Virus record (IMG/VR): IMGVR_UViG_3300034041_000023
DNA length: 6,076 nucleotides
Reading direction: 5' to 3' (one strand)
Origin: a virus
Positions 461-6,076 of this stretch are shown here, one piece after another. Both the position numbers and the translations under genes were made by a program. Position 1 is the stretch's first letter, and every line of letters begins with the position of its first letter. The notes below the pieces were generated by a model. That model worked only from the letters and a program-made list of their open reading frames with translations. It searched no databases and was not told the DNA's origin.

Positions 461-790
461 TTACCCTTTCTTCGTGCAGTAAGGAATGAAGCGGCGGGAA
501 TTCCCGCCTTTGCTTCGGTTGTCTTTGGGACGTTGTTTGCACGTCTCACGCCTCAAAGGCTCGGGAGGCGGCCTTTCTGGATTGCGTGCCTCAACAACGT
601 CCCGCGAACGGTTCACGAGTGACCCGTCCGCTACCGAATTATCAACGCGACCAATGCGTTGATAATCGGAAAAGGTATCAATCAGACCCCGACGACGCCT
701 AGAAGCTATGACCCTTCGGTCATAAGCTGGACGCGGTGCCAAGTTACTTGGGGTATCGTCGCGGGTGCGTGATCGTGATTTTCTGGCCAT
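461..790 (-). CDS. Arg-rich basic protein, 109 aa (hypothetical; possible ssDNA-binding or packaging protein, J/ORF8/VP5-like role)
   Basis: ATG at 790 with AGGGGG 6-7 nt upstream, 23 nt after the rep stop. By hand count it has about 23 Arg and 6 Lys against 13 Asp/Glu. N-terminus is MARKSRSRTRDD..., with an internal RRRR. Same strand and tight spacing with neighbours. No recognisable catalytic motif. Confidence 0.55.
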   Translation of the reverse strand: MARKSRSRTRDDTPSNLAPRPAYDRRVIASRRRRGLIDTFSDYQRIGRVDNSVADGSLVNRSRDVVEARNPERPPPEPLRRETCKQRPKDNRSKGGNSRRFIPYCTKKG

Positions 791-813
791 AGTAGCCCCC
801 TGATGCTGTTAGC

Positions 814-1773
814 CTATTTTAAGACATAGTTTTGCGCCGCGCGCAAGTCTCTTAACAGAAGTTCGTTTTTGTAATCCGCCATCTCCCTATCGGTCATGGG
901 CGGCTGTTCGAACCGTCGGGTGCCCTGCTGATCTTCGTAATATTCGAATATATGCGCATAGTGGCCCTTGTCGAAATCATCTTTCAACTTTTTCAGGATG
1001 TAGCGCCGATAGGCGTTTTCCATCCATTCAGTCTTCACAGCGTTGCGACCTTCCGGCCAGAGCTCAAAGAGCCGGTCGAAATATTCCTCTTGGGCTTTGC
1101 CTTGCAAAGTGTATCGCCAGCCGGACCGATGCGCAAACGGCGGTGTATAGTTGAAATTGCGCGGAAACACTCGCATTTCTGCTTGTCTTTCCGCTAGTTG
1201 ACGCACCATCGCTTGCCCTAAAATCGGGCGCTTTGAGTATCCTATCCACTCGGATAGGTGCTGCGTCTTATCGCGCTTTTTCTTGCGCTCTTGTTCTTTG
1301 GCTTTCACCAGATATTTGACAATATATCTGATTTTCGCCTCAGAGGCCCCGTAATCTGCGTAGACATAGCCCCAAGGCCAATGCTTCCAGCTTACGTAGG
1401 GTTTTTTTTCTGGTATGTCGGGCGGTAGCCCTTGCCCCATGAGGAGGCAATGAAAATGGGTGCGACCCTTTCTTTCGCCATATTCCCCAGCGGCAACATA
1501 CTTAAACTGCCAGTGCCGCCTTAAACGACGTTGGAATTTTTGGAAATCTTCGACGTTAACCACCTTTGTTTGCAAAGGGTTTATGATCTTTCGGTCATCG
1601 TAGGTCAGTGTTAGGGCTAGCGTCCAATCGCTGTCAGCAGCTTCCATTAATGTTCGACCAATTAGGTCAAACATTTTGTTTTTGTTGCAAGCGTAACAGT
1701 GGTTGCACGGAACCAACACTTTTTCAAAGGAAGGCCCGACGGGCTTCCAGATAGGTTGAGGGTTAACGCACAT
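814..1773 (-). CDS. VP4: Replication initiation protein (Microviridae VP4 / gene A-like HUH endonuclease), 319 aa
   Basis: ATG at 1773 with GAGGT 8 nt upstream (1786..1782). N-terminal Cys cluster PCNHCYACNKNK. HUH superfamily motifs are in the right order: motif I LTLTY (aa 54-58), motif II HFHCLL (aa 106-111), motif III with paired tyrosines YIVKY (Y150/Y154). Confidence 0.95.
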   Translation of the reverse strand: MCVNPQPIWKPVGPSFEKVLVPCNHCYACNKNKMFDLIGRTLMEAADSDWTLALTLTYDDRKIINPLQTKVVNVEDFQKFQRRLRRHWQFKYVAAGEYGERKGRTHFHCLLMGQGLPPDIPEKKPYVSWKHWPWGYVYADYGASEAKIRYIVKYLVKAKEQERKKKRDKTQHLSEWIGYSKRPILGQAMVRQLAERQAEMRVFPRNFNYTPPFAHRSGWRYTLQGKAQEEYFDRLFELWPEGRNAVKTEWMENAYRRYILKKLKDDFDKGHYAHIFEYYEDQQGTRRFEQPPMTDREMADYKNELLLRDLRAAQNYVLK

Positions 1774-1798
1774 GTATTTTTACCTCGTTAGGCGTGAC

Positions 1799-1840
1799 GG
1801 CAGTTAGAATACGGTATCAAGTAGGTGTATTCTAACGGCC
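1799..1840 (-). promoter_or_regulatory. Hairpin with a phiX174-origin-like decamer in its loop: candidate viral-strand replication origin (Rep nick site)
   Basis: Perfect 10-bp stem 1803-1812 (gttagaatac) / 1827-1836 (gtattctaac). It extends to 14 bp (1799-1840) with one mismatch at 1802/1837. The 14-nt loop reads ACCTACTTGATACC on the coding strand. CTACTTGATA (complement of 1815-1824) matches the phiX174 ori decamer CAACTTGATA at 9/10 positions. The structure is certain; the function is inferred. Confidence 0.5.
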
Positions 1841-1858
1841 CGCAAATTTACAAGTAAA
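1829..1858 (-). promoter_or_regulatory. Possible sigma70-type promoter for rep and the downstream gene train
   Basis: On the minus strand: TTTACT (1858..1853), an 18-nt spacer, then TAGAAT (1834..1829), about 55 nt upstream of the rep ATG. Hexamer matches are 4/6 and 5/6. The host is unknown, so this is weak. Confidence 0.25.
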
Positions 1859-1873
1859 TTTGCGGGCCGTTAG
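1832..1873. repeat. Perfect palindrome (20-nt arms) that overlaps the candidate ori hairpin by 5 nt
   Basis: ctaacggcccgcaaatttac (1832-1851), aa, gtaaatttgcgggccgttag (1854-1873). The arms are exact reverse complements. It shares CTAAC 1832-1836 with the right arm of the 1803-1836 hairpin, so the two folds exclude each other. Confidence 0.9.
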
Positions 1874-1881
1874 AGTTTTCG

Positions 1882-1906
1882 TCGCTTCGCTCCGTTCGCT
1901 TCGCTC
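1882..1906. repeat. Direct repeat TCGCTTCGCTC x2 (1882-1892, 1896-1906). A third 10-nt copy lies at 2177-2186.
   Basis: Read directly. The third copy sits in the loop of hairpin unit 1 of the tandem repeat. Unit 2 carries the variant TCGCTGCGCT (2243-2252). Confidence 0.85.
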
Positions 1907-1923
1907 ATTTTGTCGCGCTAACG

Positions 1924-2013
1924 CGCGGCTTTGTTCGCACCACGCCCAGACAGCGCGCACGTAGTGACCCTTCGGGGCTGACTGTCTCGGCGTGGTGCCT
2001 GCGCCGCGTTTTT
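1924..2013. other. Long compound hairpin followed by T5 on the + strand
   Basis: Base stem cgcggc (1924-1929) / gccgcg (2003-2008). Main stem 1937-1953 / 1982-1998 is 17 bp with one C-C mismatch (1947/1988). Apical CCC-TTCG-GGG sits at 1968-1977. TTTTT at 2009-2013. Confidence 0.8.
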
Positions 2014-2084
2014 GGGTTAGCGCATTTTTAGTTAGATCGTTTGCGTGTAACCTGCTGCGATCCGGCTAAAGCCCATTCTGATAG

Positions 2085-2110
2085 GCAAATTCGGCGAATT
2101 TGCTTTTCTG
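2085..2110. other. Small AT-rich hairpin GCAAATT-cggcg-AATTTGC followed by TTTTCTG on the + strand
   Basis: Stem 2085-2091 / 2097-2103, loop 2092-2096, T4 at 2104-2107. The same GCAAATT/AATTTGC arms occur within the 1832-1873 palindrome (1842-1848 / 1857-1863). Confidence 0.7.
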
Positions 2111-2127
2111 CTTGACTACCGTTGGTT

Positions 2128-2300
2128 CGGGGGGCGGTGCCCACCCATCGCTTTTACCCGTGTTCTTGGTCAATGCTCGCTTCGCTGCGCGTTGACCAGG
2201 AACACTTCTGTTGCGTTCGGTAATCGTGTTCTTGGTCAATGCTCGCTGCGCTGTGCGTTGACCAGGAACACTTGCGTTGTGGTAGCGATGGCCCACCCCC
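2128..2300. repeat. Composite structured element: two tandem 66-nt hairpin units enclosed by an 8-bp stem and G6/C6 runs
   Basis: Unit 1 stem is gtgttcttggtcaa 2160-2173 / ttgaccaggaacac 2192-2205. Unit 2 stem is 2226-2239 / 2258-2271. Each stem is 14 bp with the same single T-G position, and each loop is 18 nt. The unit cores differ at only 2 loop positions. Flanks: ccatcgct 2144-2151 pairs with agcgatgg 2284-2291, and cgggggg (2128-2134) pairs with ccccccg (2296-2302 approx). Confidence 0.9.
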
Positions 2301-2405
2301 CGTTTTCTGAGGGCGTAACGCCTCTTTCTTTGCTATGAAGGGGGTAAGGCCGATTTAATCGTTTCACCCCCGCCTTGAGGCTATTTTGGGGGTTAGAAAC
2401 GAATT

Positions 2406-2426
2406 GGGGGCGCAGTTAGCGCCCCC
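2406..2426 (-). terminator. GC-rich hairpin immediately after the last minus-strand ORF: candidate terminator of the gene train (possibly bidirectional)
   Basis: gggggcgc (2406-2413), agtta, gcgccccc (2419-2426): a perfect 8-bp stem. On the minus strand it begins 5 nt after the TAA of the 49-aa ORF and is followed by AATTCGTTTCT, which is only moderately U-rich. On the + strand it is followed by TTGTTTAGTT. Confidence 0.5.
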
Positions 2427-2430
2427 TTGT

Positions 2431-2580
2431 TTAGTTCTGTGGTCCAATGTGAGACTTTTGGACCTTTTGCCTATCCTCAACATGGTTCCAAACGTTGGAG
2501 ATATGCTCGCTCAAATGAGCATTGAGCGTTATCAACTGTTTGAAGTCGAGGCGGCATATAGCGTCAATGGCATCAGCCAT
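2431..2580 (-). CDS. Small hydrophilic protein, 49 aa (hypothetical), not in the supplied ORF track
   Basis: Hand translation from ATG 2580 gives MADAIDAICRLDFKQLITLNAHLSEHISNVWNHVEDRQKVQKSHIGPQN, stop TAA at 2433..2431. The ATG lies 10 nt after the peptidase stop, and the spacer AGAAAAGGCA contains AAGG. It is on the same strand as all other genes and is followed at once by the 2406-2426 hairpin. Confidence 0.45.
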   Translation of the reverse strand: MADAIDAICRLDFKQLITLNAHLSEHISNVWNHVEDRQKVQKSHIGPQN

Positions 2581-2590
2581 TGCCTTTTCT

Positions 2591-3298
2591 TTATTGATCA
2601 TGATTGTAATTCCCTGTGGTAATTCGAGTTGCCGAATAAGGAGTGCTTACCTCGTGGAAGCCATCAGGAAGCACTTTAGCGCGGTTGATCCAATCGCTTA
2701 ACTGCCAGTGGGCAGGATCCCATTTAAACCGATCGTTAGGATCACGAAGGGAAGCAGCGAATTGGTTGCCGCTTTCATCGCCGCCCCAAACGATTTTGGT
2801 TCCATTGCCCAAGCGCATTTGCTTGGCAATGCGTTTGCCGGTCATGCCGACATAAAGCCAAAACTCTTTGGGGCAATCCCAATGGTGGTAGGCGTGAACA
2901 ATATCAAGAGCGCAAGAGCGCTGATGAGGTCCGCTCAGAACCTTAGAGAAACCGGCAGAAGCCAGTTCATACTGAAGTTCTGGCGAACGATAGACTGTAT
3001 GAACATACATGGGCACACCGTCCTTGCGGAATTGCCGAAACAGTTTTTCGGCGAATTCTCGCAATTCAGGAGGACAGCCAACCCAGTTGGCTTTGGCATG
3101 TAGTTTCAACATGTAGTCGCTATTGAAAGCGTCAGGTTCCGCTTTCAAATATTGAAGTTGCTTTGCAACGTCAGTTGGGAACCACTTTTCAAAGGGATCA
3201 ATCGGAAAGTTAACTTTCCGGCCTCGTGCCTTTTCAAAGAGTTCGCGGATTGTCGAAACGACATATCCAGCTTTTAACAGATCCAATTTCCAGTTCAT
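2591..3298 (-). CDS. Zinc metallopeptidase of the LAS / peptidase M15 (VanY / L-Ala-D-Glu peptidase-like) type, 235 aa: probable peptidoglycan hydrolase (endolysin)
   Basis: ATG at 3298 with AAAGG 7 nt upstream. Motifs are in canonical order: YRSPELQ (aa 103-109); SGPHQRSCALD with H125 and D132, matching the H-x6-D part of the S-x-H-x-x-G-x-A-x-D signature (A and D in register); WGGD (aa 171-174); and DPAHW with H197 (the D-x-x-H motif). Codons were checked on the sequence: H125 = 2924-2926, D132 = 2903-2905, H197 = 2708-2710. No signal peptide or TM segment at the N-terminus. Confidence 0.8.
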   Translation of the reverse strand: MNWKLDLLKAGYVVSTIRELFEKARGRKVNFPIDPFEKWFPTDVAKQLQYLKAEPDAFNSDYMLKLHAKANWVGCPPELREFAEKLFRQFRKDGVPMYVHTVYRSPELQYELASAGFSKVLSGPHQRSCALDIVHAYHHWDCPKEFWLYVGMTGKRIAKQMRLGNGTKIVWGGDESGNQFAASLRDPNDRFKWDPAHWQLSDWINRAKVLPDGFHEVSTPYSATRITTGNYNHDQ

Positions 3299-3319
3299 TT
3301 TGAGCCTTTCAGATGTAGT

Positions 3320-3341
3320 GGAAGGGCGAGACCGCCCTTCC
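3320..3341. other. Intercistronic hairpin between the 169-aa gene and the peptidase gene
   Basis: ggaagggcg (3320-3328), agac, cgcccttcc (3333-3341): a perfect 9-bp stem in a 58-nt spacer. The T-rich run (tattattt) follows it on the + strand only. Confidence 0.8.
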
Positions 3342-3356
3342 TATTATTTGCCGCAG

Positions 3357-3866
3357 CTACACTTCTTTTTCTGCGGTTGTCGGTTCTGCGGCTTCCGGTT
3401 CGATTGCGTCCGGTTCCGCTTCGGCGGGAGTTTCTTCTTCGAGTGTTTCAAAGTCTAGGTCCTGATCTTTGCGGCGTTTGGCCAGCATTTTTTCAAATTC
3501 CAATTTCTGCTGACGCTTTTCAGCGAGTTGCTTCAACTGAATTTGGCGCAACGCCTGTTTGACATACTGTTCAGCGGGGCTATCCATCGGTTTCTTTTCG
3601 GCATTGGTAAAAACCTCACCGACAGATTGAGCAGCCTTAGGAGCGTCACGAATGACGCAAATTTCGGCTGTGGATGTGAAATGGTGGTGATCGTCAGGGC
3701 CGACGATATGGAAATAACTTCCATAACCCAGCAAGGACTTTGCAGCCCCAACATGGATATACAACGGCGCCTCAGCAGAAAGACGTAGGCGCGTTGTTCC
3801 ATAGGCGGGCACTTTCGCGCCCGCTTTGAACATTTCGGTGTTTGGGTTGTATTTGATCGTTTGCAT
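3357..3866 (-). CDS. Hypothetical 169-aa protein; possible internal scaffolding protein (VP3-like) by position and composition
   Basis: ATG at 3866..3864 overlaps the VP1 stop TAA (3868..3866) as TAATG. The N-terminal ~90 aa look beta-rich and contain a DDHHHF patch. These are followed by a charged helical segment (LRQIQLKQLAEKRQQKLEFEKMLAKRRK) and an acidic Pro/Glu/Ala tail. I recognise no diagnostic motif. Confidence 0.7.
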   Translation of the reverse strand: MQTIKYNPNTEMFKAGAKVPAYGTTRLRLSAEAPLYIHVGAAKSLLGYGSYFHIVGPDDHHHFTSTAEICVIRDAPKAAQSVGEVFTNAEKKPMDSPAEQYVKQALRQIQLKQLAEKRQQKLEFEKMLAKRRKDQDLDFETLEEETPAEAEPDAIEPEAAEPTTAEKEV

Positions 3867-5488
3867 TAGATTTGCTCCGCTTCGACTGCCAAGAATTCGG
3901 CGTTATCTTCGACGAGCGCGTCGCCGAATTGAGTAATCCCAACAATAGAAATCTGTTGGAGAACTGAAATGTTCACGCAGTGGTTCGAAGGAACACTGAA
4001 CACATCTTGAGGGAAAGGCGAAGGGCAAAGCCAATGATCCGAAGTAAAGACAGGATCAACAATGTCAGCTTGCCAAAGGCCAGTTCGTGCAGTGGTCGAC
4101 GGCGTTCCCGGCGTGGACTGGATAAATTCACCGCCAAGGCGGGTGTATTCGCGTTTCCACTTAGAATTCATTGGCTCATAGCCAAACGTCCCATCAGGGG
4201 TAGAATGCGCCGTATCAAGACGCCGGTTAATAACCGTGTCAACCGGTTCAATCCGCTGAATGTCGCGCATAGCGTTCGGAAGATCGTCAACGTCCGTGAC
4301 ATAAAGATATTCATCAGATTGACGCTCATAAAGCCGTTCAGGCATAACCTCGACCGTCGCCATAATCACGCCGCCATAATCCGACGTTGGGACGTTGACG
4401 TTCAAAGACATTTGAGCACGGCCCGTAGTAATACTGTCATCCAGATTTGCCGCGTCTGTCGCGTGACGCTCTTGCATACCGAAAACAACAGTTTTGCTAT
4501 CCAGCAACCAAGGGCGCTGAAGAAGTTCGTTTGGAACGGTAAAGCCTTGCATAAGTTCGGCCATAACTACGTCATCGTTATTGAACCCGCTAAAATCGCT
4601 ACCGTCATAGGCCGCGACACGTTTAGCAAAGGCTTGCGTAGTGCGCGCCTTGTCAACGTTTGCAAGAGTGGTAGTGATGGTCGTTCCGGCAAGTTCTGTA
4701 AACACTTCGTTGGATTGGTAATAATCGCCAACATCTGTCACAGTGCCCGAGGCACGAATAGCCAAATTATTGTGCGGCTGATCCAAAGAAGCACGATAAT
4801 TAGCAGTTCCGGGATTGACAGTTTCGGCGAAGGACAAGGGAACCTGTCCCGCCGAAACGTCGAGATCAAGAGCACCTGTTACGAGTGCCTGTTCATAATC
4901 CGGCACGATGTCGTGCATACGGTTGCGCGGCCAAAAGGCCTGTTTCAATTTACGCGCTTCACTCGCGTTCTCCGACCAATACTCGTTACGGGGCAATTTC
5001 GATGAATGCGATGCCAATCGGAAATTGTGAATATGATTGTAAACGTCGATATACTCATGGTTGATCACCTGAGAAGCGACACCATGAATTCCCAAAGTTT
5101 TATAAATTTCAGACGCCAAATCGGCACTCACCGAGCCTGACGGCGTTGTTTCAAACAACGCTGGCGGCGTTCGCGTCGAACTGTTCAACGCAGTAATGCT
5201 TTTGCCATGATATGCGTGCGTGTATTCATCAAGGCCTGAATAGTATGGAAGCGACGGACGAGGCACAAACCAGACTTGCCCACGGGCAATGACAGCGTTT
5301 TCCAATGGTTTTGGCATTTCTGCCAATTCCATTTGAATTGCAATGCGCCCGCTGGCGCTATCCTTGCGAAGCAATGGCGCTACGGCGACAGGGATAACAA
5401 CGCCAGCGTTGCCAGACGTGCGAAGAGCGACGTTATCCATGCGGCGTGTCATGCCATACTGAAGAGGTTCTGCGTTTTGTTTGATCAT
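3866..5488 (-). CDS. VP1: Major capsid protein (Microviridae VP1 / F-like), 540 aa
   Basis: Largest ORF. ATG at 5488 with AAGGA about 9 nt upstream, 17 nt after the VP2 stop. The size is typical of gokushovirus-like capsid proteins. The N-terminal pattern NAGVVIPVAVAPLLRKDS resembles the conserved G-x-hydrophobic-IP...LPGD region of VP1 proteins. Genome context: rep, pilot and capsid on a 6-kb circle. Confidence 0.88.
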   Translation of the reverse strand: MIKQNAEPLQYGMTRRMDNVALRTSGNAGVVIPVAVAPLLRKDSASGRIAIQMELAEMPKPLENAVIARGQVWFVPRPSLPYYSGLDEYTHAYHGKSITALNSSTRTPPALFETTPSGSVSADLASEIYKTLGIHGVASQVINHEYIDVYNHIHNFRLASHSSKLPRNEYWSENASEARKLKQAFWPRNRMHDIVPDYEQALVTGALDLDVSAGQVPLSFAETVNPGTANYRASLDQPHNNLAIRASGTVTDVGDYYQSNEVFTELAGTTITTTLANVDKARTTQAFAKRVAAYDGSDFSGFNNDDVVMAELMQGFTVPNELLQRPWLLDSKTVVFGMQERHATDAANLDDSITTGRAQMSLNVNVPTSDYGGVIMATVEVMPERLYERQSDEYLYVTDVDDLPNAMRDIQRIEPVDTVINRRLDTAHSTPDGTFGYEPMNSKWKREYTRLGGEFIQSTPGTPSTTARTGLWQADIVDPVFTSDHWLCPSPFPQDVFSVPSNHCVNISVLQQISIVGITQFGDALVEDNAEFLAVEAEQI

Positions 5489-5505: not shown

Positions 5506-6076
5506 TTACTTGTTTTTCCAGTTTTCATCAACTGGAACACCAGATGCACGCTGCACATCGTTATACGAGCGATTAATTGCATCCGATACTGTGGACTTAA
5601 GCTGAGGCAAACCGCCCCAAGACTTAAATTGAAGATATTTGTTGATGAAGAAGCCAGAGGCCATTTCATCCAAATCAGGGCCAACCGGCACTTGCGCGGT
5701 TAGTCCGTCCTTACCAACATAAGTTTGCGTTGGGCTTTCAACCATATCCGAAACAATTTCGCCGGTGCTGTTATAGGACAGTCCCAGCTTTGGCGAAGGC
5801 AAAGAAGGGGAATTGATTGCTCGAAGAGCAGTTGTAGTAATGAAATCTGGTTCAGGAACACCTTTCATTTGAGGAGTTGGAAATCTTGCCGGTATCACAG
5901 AACCGGCAAGAGAAGGGCTAGCAAGGCCAGCGGTGCTATTTGCCTTAGCTGCGTCAATCTCAATTTTCATGAGATCATTGCGCAGTTCTAAGGCCTTTTG
6001 CTCGGCCGCTTTGCGTCCGGTTAATACATCGTCTAATTGGTCGAATGTATTGGTCATAGCCGTTTGAGACATTAGA
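5506..6076 (-). CDS. VP2: DNA pilot / minor capsid protein VP2, C-terminal 188+ aa. The frame is open to the window end and continues at 94..285 of the circular map.
   Basis: The ORF track entry 5506..6072 starts at an internal Met. The preceding codon (CTA, 6075..6073) and the duplicated copy at 1..94 show that the frame continues upstream to the ATG at 285. Stop TAA is at 5508..5506. Confidence 0.8.
   Translation of the reverse strand, partial: LMSQTAMTNTFDQLDDVLTGRKAAEQKALELRNDLMKIEIDAAKANSTAGLASPSLAGSVIPARFPTPQMKGVPEPDFITTTALRAINSPSLPSPKLGLSYNSTGEIVSDMVESPTQTYVGKDGLTAQVPVGPDLDEMASGFFINKYLQFKSWGGLPQLKSTVSDAINRSYNDVQRASGVPVDENWKNK
5983..6076. repeat. Terminal direct repeat, copy B (identical to 1..94)
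   Basis: Same 94-nt string as 1..94. 5983-1 = 5982 gives the unit length. Confidence 0.97.

Follow-up and report, generated by a model that had tools for sequence, protein, structure and literature searches.

The window analysed here, the whole 6,076-nucleotide (nt) stretch of the virus record IMGVR_UViG_3300034041_000023, carries on its minus strand a gene for a putative endolysin, a predicted zinc peptidase of 235 amino acids (aa) that starts with an ATG at 3298 and ends with a TAA at 2593-2591 (3298-2591). An earlier note on this DNA, made from the sequence alone, had placed a 235-aa open reading frame (ORF) at 2591-3298 without stating its strand, and the ORF listing returns the same ATG-started frame on the minus strand, where all credible genes of the window are found. 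The first and last 94 nt of the window are identical (direct repeat 1-94 = 5983-6076), and the sequence is therefore a circularly permuted complete genome, a circle of 5,982 nt, of which the peptidase gene occupies 708 nt or 11.8%, close to the 12% of the earlier note. Read along the minus strand, the pilot protein VP2 (253 aa, with a hydrophobic N-terminal segment) starts at 285, runs across the circle junction and ends at 5506, so that it is listed in the linear window as a partial frame at 5506-6072. It is followed by the major capsid protein VP1 (5488-3866), in the block directly upstream of the peptidase, by a 169-aa gene with an acidic tail (3866-3357) that stands between VP1 and the peptidase, by the peptidase gene itself and by g56 (2601-2431), a helical ORF of 56 aa that begins with an ATG inside the peptidase gene, sharing its final 11 nt. 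Beyond a non-coding region of about 650 nt (1774-2430) come Rep/VP4 (1773-814), which matches PF23343 at 1.9e-16 and PHROG 942 at 3e-32, an Arg-rich gene of 109 aa (g109, 790-461) and g57 (458-285), a 57-aa holin candidate with two hydrophobic segments, which starts 2 nt past g109 and overlaps the start of VP2 by 1 nt.

The motifs from which a peptidase had originally been proposed are all present at the residues then given: YRSPELQ at 103, SGPHQRSCALD at 122 with H125-x6-D132 inside it, WGGD at 171 and DPAH at 194, which contains D194-x-x-H197. The record IMGVR_UViG_3300034040_000029 (IMG/VR copy L007) differs from the window by 17 nucleotides within 590-4804, and one of these differences (2789-2790) results in V170D in the peptidase, just ahead of WGGD; the sequence of the JGI protein P0001 agrees fully with that of the window. 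Such short motifs tell little by themselves, but the matches to sequence profiles exceed chance by a wide margin. As a single sequence, the protein matches PHROG 465, 'endolysin', at E = 9e-9, whereas a single-sequence phmmer search of the PDB gives nothing significant (ChiX at E = 0.78). A hidden Markov model search with the five closest sequences retrieved, in an exhaustive listing, 725 cluster representatives at E<=1e-3, of which 89 reach E<=1e-30. When compared with the PDB, a profile of 139 aligned homologues reaches the endolysin of RB49 at 1.3e-16, ChiX at 1.5e-16, Ply500 at 2e-16, LysB4 at 3e-16, LysECD7 at 5.5e-16 and T5 EndoT5 at 3e-6, and the 5-sequence profile of the closest relatives finds ChiX at 3.2e-7. 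Five residues (R104, H125, G172, D194 and H197) are invariant across the 139 homologues, and D132 (99%), Q109 (99%), W171 and A196 are conserved in at least 97% of them; H125, D132 and H197 coincide in the alignment with the His, Asp and His that ChiX and the RB49 endolysin have in their HxxxxxxD and DxxH segments. An AlphaFold2 model built from the 139-sequence alignment (predicted local distance difference test, pLDDT, 87.2; predicted TM-score, pTM, 0.80) finds its best Foldseek matches in the PDB in ChiX (E = 3.6e-5, TM-score on target 0.69) and LysECD7 (6e-5, 0.70), followed by the RB49 endolysin and Ply500, all four with a probability of 1.0, and LdcB, VanY and VanXY structures appear at lower ranks (E = 5e-3 to 1e-1). 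The M15/LAS zinc peptidase of the phage endolysin kind that the earlier note had proposed is thus borne out by PHROG 465, by family profiles at about 1e-16, by residue invariance and by the structure prediction it had suggested, and the protein can be regarded with high confidence as a metallopeptidase of the M15C fold.

The solved enzymes also define the limits of the catalytic core. In the structures of RB49 and LysECD7, residue 4 aligns at 'LKLHAKANWVG', near residue 62 of the window protein, so that the solved M15C chains align from about that residue, and the N-terminal extension is therefore of about 60 aa, not 100, and accompanied by a C-terminal tail of about 30 residues. The first 100 aa or so, in which the earlier note had recognised no motif, consequently include the beginning of the M15C core. 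On the minus strand, codons 1-61 (3116-3298) encode the helical, family-specific extension and codons 62-205 (2684-3115) the core, with R104 at 2987-2989, H125 at 2924-2926, D132 at 2903-2905, D194 at 2717-2719 and H197 at 2708-2710. The extension is a family trait, since a median of 69 residues precedes the equivalent of A70 in the 139 homologues. The model folds it into short helices, with pLDDT of 71-78 for residues 1-30 and 86-96 for residues 31-60, and with high confidence over residues 31-76. No Pfam domain was found in the extension of any of the 139 homologues, and in the window protein it is hydrophilic, devoid of transmembrane (TM) segments and neither strongly amphipathic nor cationic (net charge +1). 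The complete protein (27.3 kDa, isoelectric point 9.0) reaches a highest 19-residue Kyte-Doolittle mean of 0.49, which agrees with the lack of a signal peptide, signal-arrest-release (SAR) or TM segment already noticed in the earlier note.

Within the core, codons 174-193 (2720-2779, minus strand) form an insertion loop of 20 residues between WGGD and DPAH (DESGNQFAASLRDPNDRFKW), a stretch that comprises 5-6 residues in 96 of the 139 homologues. This loop is the sole low-confidence part of the core (pLDDT <50 at residues 177-181). It is rich in Asp and Asn, and DEDG- or NADG-like motifs are seen in other long-looped homologues. T5 EndoT5 has a Ca2+-binding regulatory loop in this region, to which the loop of the window protein may be analogous. 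Three other residues, H135, W140 and W147 (nt 2896-2894, 2881-2879 and 2860-2858), are conserved in 92-96% of the microviral family. ChiX and the RB49 endolysin, with 'VDVVAM' or 'VDVVAY' in the aligned stretch, do not keep H135, which may make a family-specific contribution to the active site.

The virus itself belongs to the microviruses, as the earlier note had stated. Its VP1 is 49% identical to the capsid protein of Tortoise microvirus 38 and 73% to that of relative L008, and the Rep match to PF23343 points in the same direction. VP1 has no Pfam match (Phage_F included) at E<=0.1 and matches PHROG 514 weakly (0.002). A capsid protein without Pfam match that is nonetheless 49% identical to annotated capsids indicates a clade far from the phiX174 and gokushovirus models. 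A tblastn search of 50,697 phage records with the peptidase gave 64 matches at E<=0.01, all of them microviruses, among which are Tortoise, Flyfo and Rattus microviruses (gene labelled 'hypothetical'), 27 Rhizobium phages ('endolysin protein'), five Roseobacter CRPss phages ('M15 family metallopeptidase') and Ascunsovirus ICBM5. The ORF of ICBM5 (3437-4063) matches the family profile at 2.4e-33, and in these lytic isolates (Rhizobium phages, Roseobacter CRPss phages and ICBM5) the homologue occupies the same locus. The 5-sequence peptidase alignment detected no relatives among the genome contigs and, in IMG/VR, the window itself and one relative, so wider relatives were gathered instead with a VP1 alignment. 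The peptidase is present in 15/15 circular IMG/VR relatives and in 18/19 prophage-like loci, in 17 of them at the conserved position, the 19th locus being truncated. All 15 circular relatives, the GenBank genomes and every sampled homologue contig have their genes in the order VP2-VP1-(150-230 aa)-peptidase-(small ORF)-Rep. The prophage hosts are either Rhodobacterales (Paracoccus, Rhodobacter capsulatus, Pseudogemmobacter, Cypionkella and others), whose prophage VP1s are 44-48% identical to that of the window, or Hyphomicrobiales (Rhizobium, Mesorhizobium, Devosia and Aminobacter). The identity to VP1 of Roseobacter and Rhizobium microviruses is about 33%. On these grounds, the host is very probably an alphaproteobacterium, and VP1 identity together with gene order identify the window as a microvirus related to the Occultatumvirinae.

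Peptidases of this kind have been reported before in microviruses. M15_3 peptidases were described in 11 gokusho- and alpaviruses and proposed as endolysins (Roux et al. 2012, PMC3394797), a lysis protein was counted among the usual proteins of Tainavirinae and Occultatumvirinae genomes (Zucker et al. 2022, PMC9753089), the basic gene set of Rhizobium microviruses was defined as mcp, rep and lys (2022, PMC9512667), and an M15 peptidase was reported in most Occultatumvirinae, with the order VP2-VP1-peptidase-VP4 (2024, PMC11499846). The remark of the earlier note that the domain is not unprecedented in microviruses was correct as to the precedent, but understated it: the peptidase is a standard, already described and annotated core gene across a clade of alphaproteobacterial microviruses, and the window protein is a divergent, so far unannotated member of this recognised lysis-gene family. 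The peptidases of Occultatumvirinae (CRPss-151/152/153/155/251, RHph_TM24, TM23, Y2 and others) and the ICBM5 'lysis protein' share with it the locus, the catalytic residues and alphaproteobacterial hosts, and tblastn of the window peptidase finds the Occultatumvirinae homologues at 2e-10 to 5e-13. The identity is, however, about 31-32% over 60-73% of the length, and the window protein is longer (235 aa as compared to 173-180), with a fuller extension and the 20-residue loop; likewise, its VP1 is about 33% identical to those of Occultatumvirinae and 49% to those of the unclassified Tortoise/Flyfo microviruses. With the solved M15C L-Ala-D-Glu endopeptidases Serratia ChiX (5OPZ), RB49 endolysin (23RI), LysECD7 (8Q2G), T5 EndoT5 (2MXZ), Listeria Ply500 (2VO9) and Bacillus LysB4 (6AKV) it shares the core, the motif order and the fold. 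These enzymes are single domains of about 130-140 aa, whereas the window protein, at about 20% identity to them, adds some 60 N-terminal and 30 C-terminal residues and has H135, W140 and W147 as family-specific positions.

Two other types of microviral proteins, proposed or assayed as lysins, differ from it. The LAS/M15-clan M15_3 peptidases (PF08291) of gut Gokushovirinae and Alpavirinae, also acquired by microviruses and proposed as endolysins, belong to another Pfam subfamily, are found elsewhere in the genome and occur sporadically, in 11 genomes and after several independent transfers (PMC3394797), whereas the window gene is a clade-wide core gene. Gp7 of Ebor, a Rhodobacter capsulatus microvirus of the 'Tainavirinae', degrades peptidoglycan in vitro and is the first experimentally verified peptidoglycan hydrolase of a single-stranded DNA (ssDNA) phage (2025, PMC11980548). 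Ebor resembles the window in having a muralytic enzyme in an alphaproteobacterial microvirus and, ahead of its pilot gene, a small predicted membrane protein, Gp1 (45 aa). Its Gp7, however, is a protein of 146 aa whose HHpred template, 6SSC_A, is absent from the PDB profile matches of the window family, and Ebor is not among the tblastn matches of the window peptidase; Gp7 probably has a different lysin fold.

As for the access of the peptidase to the cell wall, the small gene g57 is the best candidate for a partner. With its counterpart in L008 it shares 49% identity, and homologues stand directly upstream of VP2 in relative L013, CRPss-151, Tortoise microvirus 82, RHph_TM24 and many IMG/VR genomes, with a family motif K-P-x3-R-x-G-T-x2-G ... 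D-L. A word-based homologue search with g57 alone found g57 itself and no other sequence, and a profile built from the alignment of related loci retrieved 84 clusters. The Rhizobium members of the family carry PF23987 (Phage_holin_10, the Pam3 gp28 family), and UniRef calls one of them 'Pam3-gp28 family putative phage holin'. On rescanning against PF23987, the Rhizobium members score 25.6-28.6 bits, for a cut-off of 27, and marine members match weakly. When the g57 group without its Rhizobium members is compared by hhalign with the PF23987 group, the probability is 71% (E = 3.8e-5, 55 columns), and small prophage ORFs of Devosia, Stappiaceae, Rhizobium and Mesorhizobium match both profiles, thus bridging the two groups. 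In other genomes a different single-TM mini-protein, with the motif ...AIRTxLPALMGxVGALxAT..., stands at the position of g57 (Tortoise microvirus 38, L009:5030-5245; Flyfo Tbat2_93, L012:5113-5247; ICBM5, L018:359-484), and this one probably corresponds to the 'membrane protein' Gp1 of Ebor. ICBM5 contains in addition a very hydrophobic ORF of 34 codons (L018:3340-3444; KD17 2.41) that overlaps both the preceding gene, at its end, and the peptidase gene, at its start, possibly another holin-like candidate. No small hydrophobic ORF occurs in either of the two available relatives without a peptidase (CRPss-154 and a Ciona microvirus), which is suggestive at n=2; among the 15 circular relatives there are no peptidase-less negatives against which the co-occurrence of small TM ORF and peptidase could be set. 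In the literature searched, no paper on a microvirus-encoded holin or on the Pam3 gp28 holin was found.

Some relatives have lost the catalytic residues. Five complete circular sister genomes (L020, L023, L030, L033 and L037) have at the peptidase locus a homologue of 170-195 aa (L020:528-1064; L023:908-1459; L030:~3858-4394; L033:~3596-4168; L037:1682-2194) that keeps the N-terminal extension, ADWQ, RKxGIPxYV, the equivalent of H135 and a C-terminal (R)LTP motif, and lacks the R104 segment, H125-x6-D132, WGGD and D-x-x-H. Catalytically dead homologues are those of IMGVR_UViG_3300030243_000845 and 3300030412_000614, for example. The copy of the window has its catalytic residues intact. That genomes of 6 kb keep such dead copies implies that the family has a second function other than catalysis, which may be the association with capsid or pilot protein, a partnership with the holin or the sequestration of substrate. 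No paper on such pseudo-peptidases was found in the literature searched.

The peptidase gene is flanked by stem-loops on the minus strand. The 58-nt spacer between the 169-aa gene and the start of the peptidase contains a GC-rich stem-loop of 9 bp (3320-3341), and L008 and L013 have a hairpin of other sequence at the equivalent position, followed by a T-run. Past the peptidase, an 8-bp, all-GC, terminator-like stem-loop (2406-2426) stands 5 nt beyond the stop codon of g56 and closes the peptidase-g56 unit. The g56 product is 67% identical to a 60-aa ORF at the equivalent place in L003/L008, a homologous ORF of 57 aa follows the peptidase in L013 and L037, and neither a TM segment, a lipobox nor a database match was found in it. 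The adjacent non-coding region (1774-2430) shows a strong T-over-A skew on the plus strand, a 55-nt internally palindromic unit in two 66-nt tandem copies (2159-2213 and 2225-2279, 93% identical), a perfect inverted repeat of 21 bp (1831-1874) and further hairpins at 1937-1998 and 2080-2108; it may function as an origin or dif-like site, or in regulation.

From these data, a likely pathway for lysis can be proposed. The product of the gene would be a soluble zinc-dependent peptidase of the M15C family (LAS, clan MD), made in the cytoplasm, and its role as the endolysin of the phage is likely on the grounds of family, locus and conservation. The zinc would be bound by H125, D132 and H197, with D194 acting as catalytic acid/base and R104 stabilising the transition state, roles that we take to be the same as those of the equivalent residues in T5 EndoT5 and VanX. 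As all the nearest solved relatives are L-Ala-D-Glu endopeptidases, L-Ala-D-Glu would be the most likely bond to be cut in the stem peptide of peptidoglycan, a specificity that seems moderately probable by analogy with them, and its cleavage would weaken the wall at the end of infection. A peptidase without export signal would, however, need the inner membrane to be breached. A signal peptide is missing in ChiX and the T5 endolysin too, and both depend on a separate holin (ChiW in the case of ChiX); in the window the lesion would most likely be provided by g57. Thus, the export route that the earlier note left unexplained receives a partial answer: the peptidase has indeed no export signal, and a conserved holin-like gene is at hand, whose assignment as the holin of the peptidase falls a little short of an even chance. 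Lysis would then follow the holin-endolysin strategy of tailed phages, with the two genes standing apart in an ssDNA genome of 6 kb, and the stem-loop upstream of the peptidase may attenuate read-through from the capsid genes, limiting the expression of the enzyme. As compared to the holin-endolysin-spanin cassette of tailed phages, the window shares the soluble, signal-less endolysin, but its holin candidate is not adjacent and no spanin was found. In contrast to the SAR and signal-peptide endolysins, its N-terminal 61 residues are hydrophilic and helical, with no anchor. Leaving the g57 step aside, the joint statement that an M15C-type metallopeptidase acts as the endolysin of this phage can be held as fairly probable.

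Several observations weigh against this interpretation. The peptidase itself has no match in Pfam at E<=0.1 or in NCBIfam at E<=1, and the comparison with the Pfam Peptidase_M15 families that the earlier note had suggested as a check therefore fails for this sequence directly; formally, one of the outcomes that the note had named as refuting its claim has thereby occurred. Of its aligned homologues, however, 105/139 match PF13539 (Peptidase_M15_4), and the missing match stems from divergence, not from a missing domain. The sole microvirus lysin that has been assayed, Ebor Gp7, has another best template, and the dead homologues are hard to square with a purely enzymatic role of the family. Regarding the membrane step, g57 of the window has no match in Pfam, PHROG or NCBIfam, and hence none to a holin model. 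Its link to Phage_holin_10 is transitive and modest, TM proteins being prone to compositional matches, and the gene is not adjacent to the peptidase but 2.1 kb apart on the circle. A g57-family match was obtained in 36/65 peptidase-bearing loci of at least 5.2 kb, the rest having another small single-TM protein or none detected. A lipobox scan of the coding strand yielded no spanin candidate; the one match, at about 343-278, lies in a mini-ORF of 22 codons with a mature part of 5 residues and was rejected. Lastly, the hairpin at 3320-3341 is devoid of a T-run on the coding strand.

The doubts about g57 lead to the alternative that survives best, in which the protein is a true endolysin but has a holin function other than g57 or none. 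The membrane would be damaged by VP2 with its hydrophobic N-terminus, by another small protein or in a general collapse of the envelope, giving the enzyme access to the wall, or the enzyme would be translocated by its own extension. The distance between both genes, the lack of a direct holin-model match, the hydrophobicity of the VP2 N-terminus and the about 45% of peptidase-bearing relatives without g57-family match would all fit with such a route. On the other hand, the extension is neither hydrophobic nor strongly amphipathic, with its net charge of +1, most of the relatives without the g57 family have another small TM ORF at that position, and the Rhizobium members score at about the Pfam cut-off of Phage_holin_10 and are connected to g57 by bridging sequences. 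A passage without g57 seems, on balance, somewhat unlikely.

The dead homologues raise modestly another alternative, according to which the protein would be mainly, or also, associated with the virion or its assembly, opening the wall locally at genome entry, while extension and tail tether it to capsid or pilot protein. The gene stands in the structural block, after VP1 and the gene of about 165 aa, its product has no export signal, and the five sister genomes keep non-catalytic homologues with the extension and (R)LTP, which points to a selectable role other than catalysis. Traces of Ebor Gp7 were also detected in purified virions (PMC11980548, Table 1). These, however, are at trace level only and correspond to another enzyme type, a T=1 microvirus capsid has little spare room, and no other lysis gene can be recognised in the clade's lytic isolates, whereas a holin-like gene co-occurs with the peptidase. 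A virion protein in place of, or in addition to, a dedicated endolysin is therefore judged distinctly unlikely.

Regarding the bond, the protein could instead be a carboxypeptidase of the VanY/LdcB type, with trimming of stem peptides (D-Ala-D-Ala or L,D) as its activity, as would be suggested by the VanY model of Pfam, matched by 27/139 homologues, and by the LdcB, VanY and VanXY structures in the Foldseek list. The best matches in both sequence and fold, however, are all M15C L-Ala-D-Glu endopeptidases. The acid of the window protein is the Asp of a D-x-x-H motif, as in T5 EndoT5, unlike the E-x-x-H of VanX and VanY, and trimming alone would not lyse the cell, all of which makes this activity quite improbable. 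Finally, lysis by an embedded protein like E of phiX174, with the peptidase as an accessory, hardly deserves credit and was rejected, because the hydrophobic out-of-frame ORFs in VP1 (4875-4738 and 4137-3973) and in the peptidase gene (2829-2698) that could encode it are neither open nor conserved in L008 despite its 73% VP1 identity, while g57 is the only small hydrophobic ORF common to both genomes (the L008 ORF 1861-2043 having no counterpart in the window). The window and phiX174 would thus share a lysis function within the Microviridae, but fulfil it in different ways: E is a single-gene inhibitor of MraY, whereas the window, with no conserved embedded TM ORF, is predicted to degrade the wall enzymatically.

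A last question to consider is how far the lysis proposal can be extended to the clade as a whole. In its broadest form, these microviruses would run a complete split holin-endolysin system, with a holin_10-like protein encoded before the pilot gene and an M15C endolysin expressed past a leaky stem-loop, in which extension and tail of the peptidase would have a second, non-catalytic function, valuable enough for sister lineages to retain the protein when the entire active site was deleted; this picture is possible but doubtful. Lysis by microviruses outside the phiX174 group has little experimental documentation. The gene alone changes little, as it is one more divergent member of a recognised lysis family. 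The comparison adds to that family a boundary between core and extension, as well as natural dead variants that hint at a second role of the protein. Small M15C-like enzymes directed against Gram-negative bacteria are, moreover, of a type explored as enzybiotics, LysECD7 being an example. In any case, a conserved holin-like partner, if true, would explain how an endolysin without any signal gains access to the cell wall in an ssDNA phage of 6 kb.

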